Positions 32,849 to 36,916 of a stretch of 61,913 bases of DNA are shown one piece after another (position 1 is the first letter of the stretch; each line of letters begins with the position of its first letter). The notes below the pieces were generated by a model, which saw only the letters and a program-made list of their open reading frames with translations, was not told where the DNA came from and did no database searches. A program made the translations under genes and the position numbers. The DNA is from Bacteroidales bacterium (lineage in GTDB: Bacteria; Bacteroidota; Bacteroidia; Bacteroidales; ML635J-15), in assembly GCA_045112395.1 (NCBI GenBank), contig JBGUHW010000099.1, positions 1 to 61,913 on the forward strand. The letters run 5' to 3'.

Positions 32849-33469
32849 ATGAGGACATTATTTTTAACCGTTTTGGTTTTTGCGACAATGACGATTTTTG
32901 CACAGAATGTCAAGGTAAAGGACATAGAAAAGTCGCTGGTGAAAATTTCCGACAATGCTTATGTGTCGAAGTATGATGTGAGCAACGAAATGTACAGTCA
33001 ATTTCTTTCCGATTTGAAAAATAGCGGCAAAACTGATTTATACGCTGCATGTTATCCAGACACGACAAAGTGGCGCACAAAATTTGCCTATTACGAACCA
33101 TTTGTAACTTTATATCATGCTCATCCTGCCTACCTCAACTATCCAGCAGTAAATATCGACAAGAAATCGGCAGAAGAATTTTGCAAATGGTTGACCACCA
33201 AATACAACGATGGGAAAAAGCACAAGTTCGAGAACATAGAGTTCCGTCTGCCAACCGAAGCAGAATGGATGACTTTTGCATCAAAATGCAAAGAAGTGGC
33301 AAAACGCACCGGCGAAGAACTTGGTCCATACGACAATACCGCCATGACTATTGGTAATGTCTCAGAAATGACATCGGACGGCTCGGCAATGGGCGACAAC
33401 TGGGCAAACAAGGAGTCCACAACGCCATCGCCTTGGGTTGGGTTCAGGATTGTCGCTACTGTAAAGTAG
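32849..33469 (+). CDS. secreted formylglycine-generating-enzyme (SUMF1) family domain protein
   Basis: Signal peptide; YPAVNIDKKSAEEFCKWL, RLPTEAEWM, GNVSEMT and WVGFRIV match FGE-sulfatase domain blocks. Confidence 0.72.
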   Translation: MRTLFLTVLVFATMTIFAQNVKVKDIEKSLVKISDNAYVSKYDVSNEMYSQFLSDLKNSGKTDLYAACYPDTTKWRTKFAYYEPFVTLYHAHPAYLNYPAVNIDKKSAEEFCKWLTTKYNDGKKHKFENIEFRLPTEAEWMTFASKCKEVAKRTGEELGPYDNTAMTIGNVSEMTSDGSAMGDNWANKESTTPSPWVGFRIVATVK

Positions 33470-33596: not shown

Positions 33597-34175
33597 ATGG
33601 AAATCTTTCTGACAGTACTTTTTAGCGTTATCGGGACAATTGTAATTGTATGCCTGTTAAGCGTTACCATTCCAGACCTGAAACTTATGTTCAGCCGCAA
33701 AGCACGGGCAGAGGAAAAAACAATGAAAATCCGGGTTGCCGAACTCGAAGCAAAGGTCGAAACGCTTGAGCAACAGCTTGTCGCATTGCAGCAGAAAGAA
33801 ACGCATATAGTATTGAGTGAAAAGGACACATCAGGCAAACAACTCTTGAATGTAAGCAACTTAAAAGTAAATGCCACATCCATAACACATATTTCATCGC
33901 AGACGTTCGAGCAGTCGGGTGCAGGCGATTCGCGCGTGAAGATTATACATTATGCCGACCAGCAGAAGACCGACTCGGTCTATAGCAGTTTCGATGCTAT
34001 ACTCGAACAGCTTGCTGGCAATTTCCTGCAAATCAACAAGAACCAAATCATAAACCTTGATTATATACATAAGGTACAGGGCGAAGAAATTTATTTGAAG
34101 AATGTTTCAAAACCGTTTTATGTGTCGGAAGGACGGAAAGCAGAGTTTGATATGAGGATAGGAAAGCAAAGATAA
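33597..34175 (+). CDS. membrane-anchored coiled-coil LytTR-domain protein, paralog 1
   Basis: One N-terminal TM helix, a heptad-like segment (KIRVAELEAKVETLEQQLVALQQKE), and a C-terminal LytTR-like block (SFDAILEQLAGNFLQINKNQIINLDYIHKVQGEEIYL). Confidence 0.75.
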   Translation: MEIFLTVLFSVIGTIVIVCLLSVTIPDLKLMFSRKARAEEKTMKIRVAELEAKVETLEQQLVALQQKETHIVLSEKDTSGKQLLNVSNLKVNATSITHISSQTFEQSGAGDSRVKIIHYADQQKTDSVYSSFDAILEQLAGNFLQINKNQIINLDYIHKVQGEEIYLKNVSKPFYVSEGRKAEFDMRIGKQR

Positions 34176-34213
34176 ACCAATGATAATCTGTATCATATAC
34201 TGAAACAAATGTA

Positions 34214-34320
34214 CGACCTCTCCGAGGTCGCTGTTATTGTCATACAAATTTTCTATACATATCCGACCTCGCTGAGGTCGTTATGTATATGTCGTTTGAA
34301 ATCAGACCTCGGAGAGGTCA
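34214..34320. repeat. array of three GACCTC-N3-GAGGTC palindromes
   Basis: cgacctc-tcc-gaggtcg (34214-34230), cgacctc-gct-gaggtcg (34264-34280) and gacctc-gga-gaggtc (34305-34319). The outer two are inverted copies that include the flanks acaaatgt/acatttgt. Confidence 0.8.
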
Positions 34321-34350
34321 AACATTTGTCCCCTTTAACTACATATTTTC

Positions 34351-34382: not shown

Positions 34383-34448
34383 TCGTCAATGATTTTCTAT
34401 AATCCTAATTTGCTGACCTTTGCGCCCGTAAAATTTTATTTTAACTAA

Positions 34449-34478
34449 AAAACCGCTGGGCCGATGGGATATAACTGG
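34449..34478 (+). promoter_or_regulatory. conserved 30-nt leader motif, copy 1
   Basis: aaaaccgctgggccgatgggatataactgg, ending exactly 11 nt before the ATG at 34490. It is 26/30 identical to copy 2. It contains the uORF ATG at 34464 (MGYNWHERK), whose TGA (34491-34493) overlaps the main ATG. Confidence 0.6.
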
Positions 34479-34489
34479 CATGAAAGGAA

Positions 34490-35008
34490 ATGAAAAGGAA
34501 GGCATTGCTTTGGTTGTTTATTGCATTGGCAGTTTTTGTTTTACCTTCTTGCATTAGTGTCAAGGAAGTTGGAAAGGTAAGTATGATTTCTACAAGAAAT
34601 GTTTCAATGAAGACGGATTATGTATTAGTGTCATCGTATTCAGGAGGTTCAAAATCTGATTTGAAAAAGTCGAAGGCAACCAATATTGAAGAAGCTGTAG
34701 ATCAAACAGTACGAAAAGTTCCCGGGGGTGAATTTCTGATGAATGCGAAAATCAATTTGGTTTACCACAGGGTATCTGGCAAGGCTTTTTTTGCAATAGA
34801 GGGTGATGTTTATGGAAACAAGTCTGCTAATGGAGGAGCAGAAAGGTCTTATCGTGGATTTCAAACTGGTGACAAAGTAAGTTGGGGTAATAAATTAACA
34901 GGTTTTAAGTCGGGCACAATAAAGTCGCTCAAGGATGACAAGACTTGTCTGGTGGAAACAGAAGATGGCAGGACCGTGGAAAAGAAATACGATGAGTTAA
35001 GCAAGTAA
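34490..35008 (+). CDS. hypothetical lipoprotein
   Basis: MKRKALLWLFIALAVFVLPSCIS is a signal peptide with a lipobox; 172 aa. Confidence 0.65.
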   Translation: MKRKALLWLFIALAVFVLPSCISVKEVGKVSMISTRNVSMKTDYVLVSSYSGGSKSDLKKSKATNIEEAVDQTVRKVPGGEFLMNAKINLVYHRVSGKAFFAIEGDVYGNKSANGGAERSYRGFQTGDKVSWGNKLTGFKSGTIKSLKDDKTCLVETEDGRTVEKKYDELSK

Positions 35009-35041
35009 TTAGCACTGTATATTTCAATAATTTAACTGATT

Positions 35042-35071
35042 AAAACCGATGTACCAATGGGATATAACTGG
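35042..35071 (+). promoter_or_regulatory. conserved 30-nt leader motif, copy 2
   Basis: aaaaccgatgtaccaatgggatataactgg, ending 11 nt before the ATG at 35083. The uORF starts at ATG 35057 (MGYNWEKQE), and its TGA (35084-35086) overlaps the main ATG. Confidence 0.6.
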
Positions 35072-35082
35072 GAAAAACAGGA

Positions 35083-35319
35083 ATGAAAAAGTTTTTGTTT
35101 GGAATTTTGGTTATTGCAGGACTATTATTAGGCATGTCGTCTTGTCATAAATATTGCCAATGCAAATATTATGAATCTGGAGTCGTAGTCCTTGAAGATG
35201 AAGTGGAAGACGTTAGTGGGGTTTACAAGAATTGTGCGGAATACACAGTTGACCTTCATAATGCAGACCCAGATTATAATGGGAACGATAAGACAGGATG
35301 GTATTGTTACAAATACTAA
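35083..35319 (+). CDS. small Cys/Tyr-rich lipoprotein
   Basis: MKKFLFGILVIAGLLLGMSSCHKYCQC is a signal peptide with a lipobox; 78 aa. Confidence 0.55.
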   Translation: MKKFLFGILVIAGLLLGMSSCHKYCQCKYYESGVVVLEDEVEDVSGVYKNCAEYTVDLHNADPDYNGNDKTGWYCYKY

Positions 35320-35478
35320 ATTTCGATTAAGGGCAAGAAAGTTACTCCGCTTGCCAATCTTTACAATGCGTTGGGTGAGGTTACGGAATGAAAAACAAAA
35401 GCATTATCAAGACGTAAAGGGCAGGTTTATGCATGTACCTCCCACAGAGAACGCAAAAGTCTTATTTTAAAGACAATT

Positions 35479-35511
35479 AACTGCATGGAAGGAATATTCC
35501 ATGCAGTTTTG
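35479..35511 (+). terminator. rho-independent terminator
   Basis: Perfect 12-bp stem aactgcatggaa/ttccatgcagtt with a 6-nt loop, ending in a T run. Confidence 0.7.
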
Positions 35512-35594
35512 TTCAAACTATAATTTGCAACGAAACACAATTTATTTGTAATCGCGAGCAATTTTTTTGCTAATTGATGTCGCGCAAATTTGCT

Positions 35595-35602
35595 TATTTT
35601 TG
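35595..35602 (+). promoter_or_regulatory. -7 box TATTTTTG upstream of LytTR paralog 2
   Basis: Matches TAnnTTTG, 14 nt upstream of the ATG at 35617. The track start at 35590 is a TTG just 5' of this box (ORF reads through it). Confidence 0.45.
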
Positions 35603-35616
35603 CAAACAAAAAAGCT

Positions 35617-36198
35617 ATGTTCGACACTATTCTAAACATTTCATTGGTTCTCCTATTTTTCACGCTTTCAATATTCTTTATAGCGGTAACTTTCCCAACC
35701 ATAAGGGATTTCGTAAGGGGGAAAAAGAACGACAGCAACAACGATGAAGCGCTTGCCCGCAAAATATCCGACATGGAATCGCGACTAAATGCTCTCGAAC
35801 AGCAATTGTCAGTTTCAAAAGAAATGCATATAGTTGTAAACGAAAAGGAAGAGCAATCAAAACAACTGCTCAATCTCAATAACCTGAAAATAAAGGCAAT
35901 ATCAATATCTTACATAGCATCACAAGTGTTCGAGATTCCAGAAGGCGGTGATTCGAGAATAAAGGTAATCCACTATTCCGGCACCTCAAAAACAGACTCA
36001 GTATACAGCACTTTCGATGCAATACTCGAGCAACTTTCGGGAAACTTCATGCAAATCAACAAGAACCAGATTGTTAACCTCGACAAGATACACAAGATTC
36101 AAGGCAACGAAATTTATCTTGCAGGAATGTCGAAACCATTTTTCGTATCGGAAAACCGCAAGGACGAATTCGATGTAAGAATCGGAAAAATCAATTAG
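35617..36198 (+). CDS. membrane-anchored coiled-coil LytTR-domain protein, paralog 2
   Basis: Same architecture as 33597-34175, with long shared stretches (KTDSVYSTFDAILEQLSGNFMQINKNQIVNLDKIHKIQGNEIYL). Confidence 0.75.
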   Translation: MFDTILNISLVLLFFTLSIFFIAVTFPTIRDFVRGKKNDSNNDEALARKISDMESRLNALEQQLSVSKEMHIVVNEKEEQSKQLLNLNNLKIKAISISYIASQVFEIPEGGDSRIKVIHYSGTSKTDSVYSTFDAILEQLSGNFMQINKNQIVNLDKIHKIQGNEIYLAGMSKPFFVSENRKDEFDVRIGKIN

Positions 36199-36330
36199 CA
36201 CTCGCAATTCATAAATTGCAAATTACAAAAAGCAAACCTCAGATGTCGTTTTTGTGGCATCAAATTGCAAACCACACATTACATTCGTGCAATTACGACA
36301 CATTTGCATCGTCAAATAAATTAATAATTT

Positions 36331-36363
36331 AAAACCGATGGAGCCGCATGGTATATAACTCGG
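36331..36363 (+). promoter_or_regulatory. conserved leader motif, copy 3 (33 nt, with small insertions)
   Basis: aaaaccgatggagccgcatggtatataactcgg, ending 11 nt before the ATG at 36375. Here the internal ATG (36348) is in frame with the main ORF (MVYNSARCK-MKRC...). Confidence 0.55.
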
Positions 36364-36374
36364 CACGATGTAAA

Positions 36375-36857
36375 ATGAAAAGATGTGTATTTTTTATTAT
36401 TGGCGTTATGATTGCATTAGTATTTGCTTCTGGATGCACAAAAGTTGTTACACAAAGTACTGTCCATGAATTCAACGTCACATTCAGCAATGTAGCCAAC
36501 AAACAAATAGTGTCAGAAGGTTATACAGGACTGAAGGGCTGTGTATGTTCATCCGATGCCATACTAGTATATGTTTATTTTGGAAATACATCAGGCGAAG
36601 ATATATGGATGCCTCTGCCCGCAACCATTAACACAGCATTATACGACTACGCTTATACTGATAACGGCATATTTATATTTAATGCCGATGCAGGCGTTGG
36701 TAATGTTTGGATAAATGATTTCTCGTTGAAGTACAGGGTTATCCAGATACCAAGAACTGCCGTTGTTTCAAAATCGATTGAAGAACTCAAGGCTGACGAC
36801 TACAATGAAGTAATAAAAGAATTAGACCTGTACAATGCTCCTATTATGCGCAAGTAG
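36375..36857 (+). CDS. hypothetical lipoprotein
   Basis: MKRCVFFIIGVMIALVFASGCTK is a signal peptide with a lipobox. An alternative in-frame ATG lies at 36348. Confidence 0.6.
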   Translation: MKRCVFFIIGVMIALVFASGCTKVVTQSTVHEFNVTFSNVANKQIVSEGYTGLKGCVCSSDAILVYVYFGNTSGEDIWMPLPATINTALYDYAYTDNGIFIFNADAGVGNVWINDFSLKYRVIQIPRTAVVSKSIEELKADDYNEVIKELDLYNAPIMRK

Positions 36858-36882
36858 GAACTATATTGTAATCTAAAAACAA

Positions 36883-36916
36883 ACGGCGGGAATGAAAATC
36901 ATTCTCGCCGTTTTTA
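36883..36916. terminator. bidirectional rho-independent terminator
   Basis: acggcgggaatg-aaaat-cattctcgccgt, a 12-bp stem with one G-U pair, flanked by an A-run and a T-run. It lies between convergent genes. Confidence 0.65.

Follow-up and report, generated by a model that had tools for sequence, protein, structure and literature searches.

The 61,913-nucleotide (nt) contig JBGUHW010000099.1 of a Bacteroidales bacterium (assembly GCA_045112395.1), analysed whole and referred to here as the window, carries three copies of a short repeated motif, each placed just before the start codon of a lipoprotein gene. Our overall reading, to which we give an even chance, is that these repeats are copies of a structured RNA element in the 5' untranslated region (UTR) of messenger RNA (mRNA) and that they act as a shared translational operator. 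Its two parts differ in strength: that the motif is a structured RNA element of the 5' UTR, formed on the sense strand, is very probable, and that a factor binds it to control translation is a more tentative proposal, somewhat short of an even chance. Bacteroidia initiate translation without Shine-Dalgarno pairing, and how single mRNAs are selected for control in these bacteria is poorly understood.

The motif extends far beyond the window. The wider search that the initial annotation of this DNA had suggested returned hundreds of copies in uncultured Bacteroidales. A first scan, covering one genome per species with the pattern AAACCGNTG-N5-9-ATGGNATATAAC, gave at least 119 loci, and a second scan with the AACCGACG (ACG) variant gave at least 119 further loci; across the 2.3 Mb of locus sequence examined, the loop occurs 330 times in motif context. 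Among the matches listed, nearly all carriers are metagenome-assembled, uncultured Bacteroidales from rumen, hindgut and termite gut, recovered by many independent studies and including Paludibacteraceae, 'Prevotellaceae', Lentimicrobiaceae and the P3 group. Several of these genomes give three to five loci each, with up to five copies in a single 8-kb stretch. A phage origin of the motif was rejected, with just two matches in 2.9 million viral contigs. At least six pattern matches in Bacillota (L005, L034, L088, L095, L106 and L107) read AAACCGYTGGCA...TATGGTATATAAC within apparent permease coding sequence, and we set them aside as coincidences because they lack both the stem and a start codon at the right spacing. 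Divergent relatives of the motif (L153, L154 and L155, about 60 nt before the ATG, and L169) keep the same layout with a different box and loop, in the forms AAACTGYGG...ACAGGATAAATAC and AAACGACG...ACGATATATAAC. As these relatives escape the covariance model built here, the consensus that we used does not span the whole family. Searched against Rfam 15, the window gave no match at the gathering threshold, and between 34380 and 36480 nothing overlapped any copy at E <= 10. Likewise, no published description came from keyword or sequence-string searches, nor from a human-microbiome RNA-motif survey as far as its first 200 supplementary files. We rate the motif as a new, widespread and previously undescribed RNA family of a known general kind.

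From 5' to 3', the consensus consists of a single-stranded box (AAACCGAYG), a stem of 3-5 base pairs (bp) enclosing a 12-nt loop (AUGGKAUAUAAC), an A-rich spacer of 13-15 nt, and the AUG. The helix is built of three core pairs and one or two facultative pairs, and the hairpin lies at about -11 to -33 from the start codon, where it borders the A-rich initiation region on its 5' side. From copy to copy, the bases before ATGG change together with those after TATAAC and remain complementary to them (AGTCG...CGAC, GGGCG...CGCC, GCTCG...CGAG, GACTCA...TGAGT, GTTGAA...TTCAAC). In 82 ungapped copies, the covariation of the five-pair helix was 0.419 versus 0.154 when shuffled, a value that none of 500 shuffles reached, and shifted-register controls, three to five times lower, did not exceed 0.115. 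The three core positions of these copies hold GC 56, CG 17 and GU 4; CG 29, GC 24, UA 12 and AU 2; and CG 78, respectively. Among 126 distinct model-aligned copies covariation was again higher than in shuffles (0.493 versus 0.192), and 137 ACG-variant copies, which served as an independent set, form the second, third and fourth pairs outward from the loop in 97%, 93% and 95% of cases. Compensatory pairing above both types of control is what is expected of a structured cis-regulatory RNA. Among the three options of the initial annotation, which had called for a covariation analysis of homologous leaders, was an RNA element of the 5' UTR whose short stem flanks the AUGGGAUAUAACU loop; this option is supported. 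The pairing also has a strand. Within the stem cells G·U combinations outnumber A·C combinations by 60 to 21, which places the pairing on the gene-bearing strand, and the closing position is occupied by G-C, G·U and G·A in about equal parts.

Next to this freely changing stem, the unpaired positions hardly change at all. In 26 copies that fall outside the search pattern, the box (AAACCG-A-Y-G) and the loop (A-U-G-G-K-A-U-A-U-A-A-C) are still near-invariant. Since the Y of the box is C in about 40% of these copies, the first 'ATG' of the motif is not a start codon. The K of the loop is U, giving GGUA, in 41 of the 137 ACG-variant copies, a share that is about 30% in the first set, and the loop reads GGA (AUGGGAU) in about 70% of copies. 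Conservation reaches 5' of the small reading frame that opens within the loop, as the initial annotation had correctly stated.

The motif keeps its distance to the start codon and lies, as several lines of indirect support suggest, within the transcript. From TATAAC to the A of the start codon, 79 of 104 copies in the first set and 109 of 125 in the second measure 13-15 nt, and the stretch from -10 to -1 is A-rich, with A peaking at -3 and at -6/-7. Baez et al. 2019 is said to have found that an A-rich stretch before the start codon matters for initiation without Shine-Dalgarno pairing in Bacteroidetes, which matches the context of the motif. Exact matches to the canonical -7 promoter box (TAnnTTTG) cluster 24-44 nt 5' of the motif; such a box falls within a 20-nt window in 24 of 124 copies, where by our own estimate from base composition about one would be expected. 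Control genes in the same loci show their TAnnTTTG peak 21-50 nt before the ATG. Other copies stand 6-35 nt past the stop codon of a same-strand gene. These upstream boxes and operon-internal copies together imply that the motif lies within transcripts, on the sense strand and 5' of the open reading frame (ORF), where promoter-proximal copies would begin about 15-20 nt from a 5' end placed from the boxes. Immediately upstream of the motif's own 5' box no signal holds a fixed position, and the 20 nt there are only A/T-rich and G-poor.

The three window copies, all on the forward strand and spanning 34449-34480, 35042-35072 and 36331-36365, fit this description. The sequence agrees with the initial annotation that they precede lipoprotein ATGs at 34490, 35083 and 36375, and the identity of 26 in 30 positions between copies 1 and 2 was reproduced. 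That the motif occurs nowhere else in the window also holds: ATGGKATATAACT has three exact matches in the 61.9 kb, all at motif copies, and a covariance model built from relatives finds the same three alone at 44-54 bits (E 4e-10 to 5e-13), with the next-best match, of 12.9 bits, falling within coding sequence. Short half-patterns by themselves are not above chance at one or two mismatches; the full bipartite motif is. The annotated constant distance of 11 nt from the end of each copy to its ATG is true of the copies as they were drawn, and is constant only since copy 3 had been drawn 3 nt longer. Counted from TATAAC to the ATG, copies 1 and 2 both have a spacing of 14 nt and copy 3 one of 15 nt, within a range of 12-16 nt in the wider family.

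Copy 1 (34450..34479; 50.5 bits, E 5e-12) has the box AAACCGCTG at 34450-34458, a GCCG/UGGC stem at 34460-34463 and 34476-34479 with a closing G·U, and the loop ATGGGATATAAC (RNA form AUGGGAUAUAAC) at 34464-34475. It leads a gene for a 172-amino-acid (aa) lipoprotein with a signal peptide and the lipobox LPSC (34490..35008). About 35 nt 5' of the copy lies a near-canonical -7 box, GAccTTTG (34415..34422; 5/6 versus TAnnTTTG), from which transcription would start near 34427-34430 and give a 5' UTR of about 60 nt holding copy 1. Copy 2 (35043..35071; 54.3 bits) has the box AAACCGATG at 35043-35051, a 3-bp CCA/UGG stem at 35054-35056 and 35069-35071, and its loop at 35057-35068, and it leads the gene of a small Cys-rich lipoprotein of 78 aa (35083..35319). 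Copy 2 begins 33 nt past the stop codon of the gene before it, from which no terminator separates its own gene, so it lies inside an operon of two genes, which a hairpin followed by a T-run at 35479..35508 likely terminates. In L101, the closest related genome, the ortholog of the 78-aa gene is also preceded by the motif.

Copy 3 (36332..36364; 43.8 bits) repeats the box AAACCGATG at 36332-36340 and has a GCCG/CGGC stem at 36343-36346 and 36361-36364, with a left arm that exceeds those of copies 1 and 2 by 2 nt, and the loop ATGGTATATAAC (RNA form AUGGUAUAUAAC) at 36348-36359, flanked by a C·U mismatch. A near-canonical -7 box, cAcaTTTG (36299..36306; 5/6), lies 34 nt 5' of it; both window boxes stand at the kind of distance at which exact boxes peak across the family. 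Copy 3 leads a lipoprotein gene of 160 aa (36375..36857), past which stands a terminator-like hairpin of 15 pairs (36881..36913). A mechanical ORF list begins this gene nine codons earlier, at the loop ATG (36348-36857, 169 aa, MVYNSARCKMKR...); judging by the signal peptide and by the spacing seen across the family, the true start is 36375. Above threshold, none of the three motif-led window products matches a Pfam family.

The genes behind the motif share a destination rather than an ancestry. Clustering of 105 downstream proteins gave 71 clusters of many unrelated families, with representatives that match DUF2807, OmpA, CsgG-like, SPFH/Band 7, secreted DnaJ-type zinc-finger repeat and Tlde1/YkuD-like proteins, and many that match no family. 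By a crude test, signal-peptide-like N-termini occur in 94 of 104 and 110 of 124 motif-led products, compared to 231 of 591 motif-free ORFs of the same loci, and 38 of 104 motif-led products carry a lipobox-like cysteine. Arrays of three to five motif-led small genes exist; many other copies are solitary, syntenic across species and equipped with their own promoter, for example in a 13-member DUF2807 group. The settings of the motif are equally varied, as it is found behind ordinary promoters, inside operons and behind a leader RNA of about 220 nt that is described below.

The case for a bound factor begins with the weakness of the helix. Shuffled sequences are predicted to fold at least as stably as the window copies (z from -0.24 to +1.8), and for copy 2 the prediction does not even contain the 3-bp stem; an RNA thermometer or a self-sufficient blocking hairpin is unlikely on these grounds. 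We infer a partner because the helix is too weak alone, yet its pairs and 21 unpaired bases are kept. In well-studied systems such as thrS and rpsO, operator hairpins in the zone from -11 to -33 trap the 30S subunit or compete with it, and here this zone directly adjoins the A-rich stretch before the start codon. One trans-acting partner, most likely an RNA-binding protein, would recognise the hairpin as its operator; its binding would stabilise the hairpin and set the loading of 30S subunits at the adjacent start site, as repression or as activation, and an envelope-protein regulon would thereby be controlled jointly.

Several observations weigh against this proposal. No regulator gene recurs beside motif loci and no candidate partner was found there; the commonest neighbors, tdh/kbl-like genes, belong to one syntenic leader-RNA locus. 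Only three pairs are strongly kept, whereas the outer pairs hold in about 50% of copies, and in the ACG-variant set about half have pair 1 or pair 5. The putative start sites are placed from -7 boxes, yet an exact box within 120 nt is missing from about two thirds of copies. A promoter, too, would suit the bipartite layout and the 20 A/T-rich, G-poor nt upstream of the box, and invariant unpaired bases with a covarying stem are also the signature of a ligand-binding aptamer. Finally, the proposed effect on translation is drawn from sequence and position.

Taken together with the leader RNA that often accompanies it, the motif could instead be a new sensing or recruiting device for translation, either a minimal aptamer for a signalling molecule or a 30S-docking replacement for the Shine-Dalgarno sequence. 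We consider this rather unlikely. If true, the aptamer form would switch a whole surface-protein regulon, and the docking form would give certain mRNAs a privileged status.

A very small riboswitch-like aptamer, whose fold around a second messenger or an ion would gate the start site, is likewise unlikely on balance. Near-invariant unpaired nucleotides beside a covarying stem are its classic signature and keep it live, the helix is unstable alone, and, from general knowledge, the length of about 35-44 nt is in the size range of preQ1-I and guanidine-III riboswitches while a heterogeneous regulon of surface and secreted proteins recalls cyclic-dinucleotide riboswitches. The downstream genes suggest no ligand, since they show no transporter or biosynthetic theme, and no Rfam family matches. 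Pairing of the 3' tail is at chance level with both the loop (3.90 versus 3.92 shuffled) and the box (3.00 versus 2.88), so an H-type pseudoknot of the preQ1-I kind was rejected. A possible box-loop pairing, ACCG-UGGK, would span 3-4 bp; it is beyond covariation testing because its bases are invariant.

The leader RNA bears on a further alternative. In many loci, a second conserved element, likewise undescribed, lies 25-50 nt 5' of the motif, with no ORF and with a canonical promoter of its own. A pattern for its 30-nt core is found at 81 loci, all in uncultured Bacteroidales and several per genome, and its consensus fold is a rod of about 220 nt with 60 predicted pairs, 16 of which show compensatory changes. 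Conserved blocks include ATGCACATCATAGAATAGGAAAAAGCGAAGT, CGTTGTAATTGGG, AGGTAGTCnAAGACCTCA and CCGATGAAG, and examples lie at L013:5405-5720(+), L079:585-901(+), L079:2708-3023(+), L061:383-696(-) and L058:1767-2077(+). Among 72 leader-RNA copies with room downstream, 39 have the motif at a fixed distance behind them with no promoter box between; in the remaining copies a signal-peptide gene follows directly, or the motif is present in a divergent form. The leader RNA has no Rfam match and does not occur in the window. That it is the long structured leader of the same regulatory system as the motif is a lead, not a result. A small hairpin was also noticed between leader RNA and motif, with a conserved loop, GAAAAGCCnUAA(U)AGAGUA, and varying complementary flanks (cctgc/gcagg, ccc/ggg); a crude pattern gives about seven copies (L001:829, L002, L007, L153-L155 and L238).

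A multicopy structured RNA genetically linked to the motif is what might be looked for if the motif were the shared target site of a trans-acting small RNA, with the loop engaged in a kissing complex, and a 12-nt invariant loop on a short stem would make a good kissing partner. There is precedent in Bacteroides thetaiotaomicron, where the small RNAs GibS and FopS act on the initiation regions of outer-membrane protein mRNAs (PMC11697453). We nevertheless judge a small-RNA target to be quite unlikely. It implies a partner transcript with a GUUAUAUCCCAU-like sequence, and the 2.3 Mb of locus sequence hold no convincing orphan anti-loop sequence. The leader RNA was rejected as an antisense partner, having no conserved complement to the box or loop (no 6-8-mer in at least 5 of 15 copies) and predicted duplexes with the motif that are inconsistent between loci. 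A small-RNA target would also need neither the covarying stem nor the separate 5' box.

The initial annotation had offered a dedicated promoter as another option. In this form the motif would be a compact promoter of the extracytoplasmic function (ECF) sigma factor type, with AAACC as the -35 and TATAAC as the -10 element and with transcripts whose leaders are 6-9 nt long. The bipartite layout suits such a promoter, as do an envelope-protein regulon typical of ECF sigma factors, upstream sequence that resembles an UP element, and the many copies without an exact canonical box upstream. Spacer length is divided in the evidence that it gives. A left arm of 5 nt is found in 65-76% of copies, one of 6 nt in 18-23% and one of 7 nt in 4-10%, while arms of 4 or 8 nt are rare, with the right arm lengthening along with the left, where a promoter would be expected to vary its spacer by no more than plus or minus 1; on the other side, two spacer lengths together account for 88-94% of copies, and since about 90% use two lengths, the spread alone is not decisive. 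What makes a promoter improbable is that it leaves unexplained why spacer and discriminator should be complementary in 93-97% of copies while their sequence changes freely, and why G·U should be favored. Canonical -7 boxes at a preferred upstream distance, copies 6-35 nt past a same-strand stop and the many copies directly behind a leader RNA with its own promoter argue against it as well. The implied leaders would also be of a rare kind, as only 3.7% of B. thetaiotaomicron 5' UTRs are shorter than 10 nt (PMC7366714). A non-canonical 'PM2' promoter of the same species, near-palindromic and with -10 and -30 boxes, is known to us by description, which came with no sequence for comparison.

An RNA processing or stability signal would account for the placement of the motif before each cistron in arrays and directly behind a long structured leader, with an endonuclease cut in the box freeing the cistron from the leader RNA or from its operon partner. 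A single-stranded A-rich box followed by a hairpin is, as a matter of general knowledge, a common layout of endonuclease sites. Tight spacing to the AUG and 12 invariant loop nucleotides have no explanation under processing, which we find distinctly improbable.

The motif-led genes come and go, which raises the question of a DNA-level recombination site. When the window is compared with L101 (34449-35071 versus L101:4451-4839), a unit consisting of the 172-aa gene and copy 2 has been gained or lost exactly between motif copies, so that the 172-aa gene led by copy 1 is missing from L101, and L101 carries a different motif-led gene, of 271 aa, further on. At orthologous loci (L302-L310), the same gap holds zero, one or two motif-led genes. 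An attC-like site that moves gene cassettes as a folded strand would fit these gains and losses and the arrays of three to five genes. We regard it as very improbable. Recognised attC sites are imperfect palindromes of 57-141 nt with R''/L''-L'/R' cores in integrase-adjacent arrays, and the motif, at about 35 nt, has no R''/R' inverted core sites and no GTTRRRY partner for TATAAC; no recombinase recurs nearby, and many copies are solitary and syntenic with their own promoter. Motif-led genes turn over as units, for which ordinary recombination between 44-nt repeats is enough.

The last option, a translated upstream ORF (uORF) of nine codons whose stop overlaps the main ATG and couples the two by termination-reinitiation, is hardly credible as a family feature: the frames MGYNWHERK and MGYNWEKQE (copies 1 and 2) and the in-frame MVYNSARCK (copy 3) read as first annotated, and the ATGA overlap is present in 25 of 104 relatives, but spacings of 13, 14 or 15 nt put the loop ATG in all three frames, so that the frame is not kept and 28 of 104 copies read into the main frame; TAA or TAG stands at codon 3 in L047, L068 and L041, copies with ATGGGATAAAAC or ATGGGATAGAAC having a stop there; the loop ATG is lost in the divergent loops ACAGGAU and ACGAUAU (seen in ACAGGATAAATAC and ACGATATATAAC); and wobble bases are invariant while residue 2 changes among Gly, Val and Glu. 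The uORF of copies 1 and 2 is, on this reading of the sequences, a by-product of the 14-nt spacing and a following lysine codon.

In the window, the motif-led genes are interleaved with two genes for paralogous proteins (33597-34175 and 35617-36198), in which a membrane helix at the N-terminus is followed by a coiled coil and a C-terminal LytTR DNA-binding domain (Pfam E about 3e-8), and each LytTR gene precedes one or more motif-led genes. A membrane-anchored LytTR regulator is unusual in itself. In a separate scan for LytTR relatives, 10 related genomes showed the pair in synteny, each followed by lipoprotein genes led by the motif, and in 8 of the 10 a motif copy is kept in the place of copy 3, about 130 nt past the second LytTR gene. 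The first-scan loci give a different picture, as among the matches listed only L101, from the window's own lineage, has LytTR genes. The LytTR protein was thus rejected as the regulator of the motif, its neighborhood being lineage-specific. Nor is the motif a LytTR binding site, which needs 9-bp direct repeats about 21 bp apart from centre to centre, whereas the CGATG units of the motif are 8-11 nt apart. Two further features of this neighborhood are recorded here. Three perfect palindromes, GACCTC-N3-GAGGTC, follow the first LytTR gene at 34215-34229, 34265-34279 and 34305-34319, 40-50 nt apart; 0.06 would be expected by chance, and two of them score as terminator-like. The segment that holds them (34178-34335) has no counterpart in L101; a stacked terminator or the insertion of a repeat element could account for it. 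The gene at 32849-33469, which immediately precedes the LytTR-lipoprotein cluster and lacks a motif copy, encodes a secreted protein of 206 aa whose FGE-sulfatase or GldK-GldJ-like domain is truncated.

A compact, near-invariant signal near the start codon of hundreds of secreted and surface genes is a handle for finding the factor that would read it. The motif marks putatively co-regulated, mostly uncharacterised envelope proteins of abundant uncultured rumen and hindgut bacteria. In addition, it can be used as a sequence tag for correcting start-codon calls, as with copy 3.

Among known systems, ECF sigma promoters are like the motif in being bipartite, in having AAC in the upstream box and in serving an envelope regulon; they differ in that the motif has a covarying stem, a strand-specific G·U bias and canonical promoters upstream. 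The targets of GibS and FopS (PMC11697453) are alike in post-transcriptional control at the initiation region, in envelope mRNAs, in the involvement of multicopy RNAs and in the lack of a Shine-Dalgarno sequence. Those targets are short unstructured complements, whereas the motif is structured and near-invariant and no RNA complementary to it was found. Small riboswitches (preQ1-I, guanidine-III and the cyclic-dinucleotide classes) resemble it in size, in invariant unpaired bases beside a covarying stem and in an A-rich tail, and the cyclic-dinucleotide classes also in a diverse surface-protein regulon; unlike them, the motif has no detectable tail-loop pairing, ligand-related genes or Rfam match. 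Sites of CsrA/RsmA are likewise 5'-UTR hairpins that serve a whole regulon, and the loop GGA is present in most motif copies. Where those sites have a short A(N)GGA core, the motif conserves 12 + 9 nt, and a CsrA/RsmA site, with its invariant loop GGA, was rejected because the loop reads GGUA in about 30% of copies.

The closest likeness is to operator hairpins such as those of Escherichia coli thrS and the MS2/R17 coat-protein gene, which also consist of a short stem and a conserved loop at about -10 to -50 of the start codon, and in which the identity of unpaired bases matters while the stem merely has to pair. In contrast to these hairpins, the motif serves dozens of unrelated genes per genome rather than one autoregulated gene, has an extra conserved single-stranded 5' box, occurs in a phylum that does without Shine-Dalgarno pairing, and is matched to a partner that is so far putative. 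By this analogy, the best reading is that the element works most like a translational operator hairpin.

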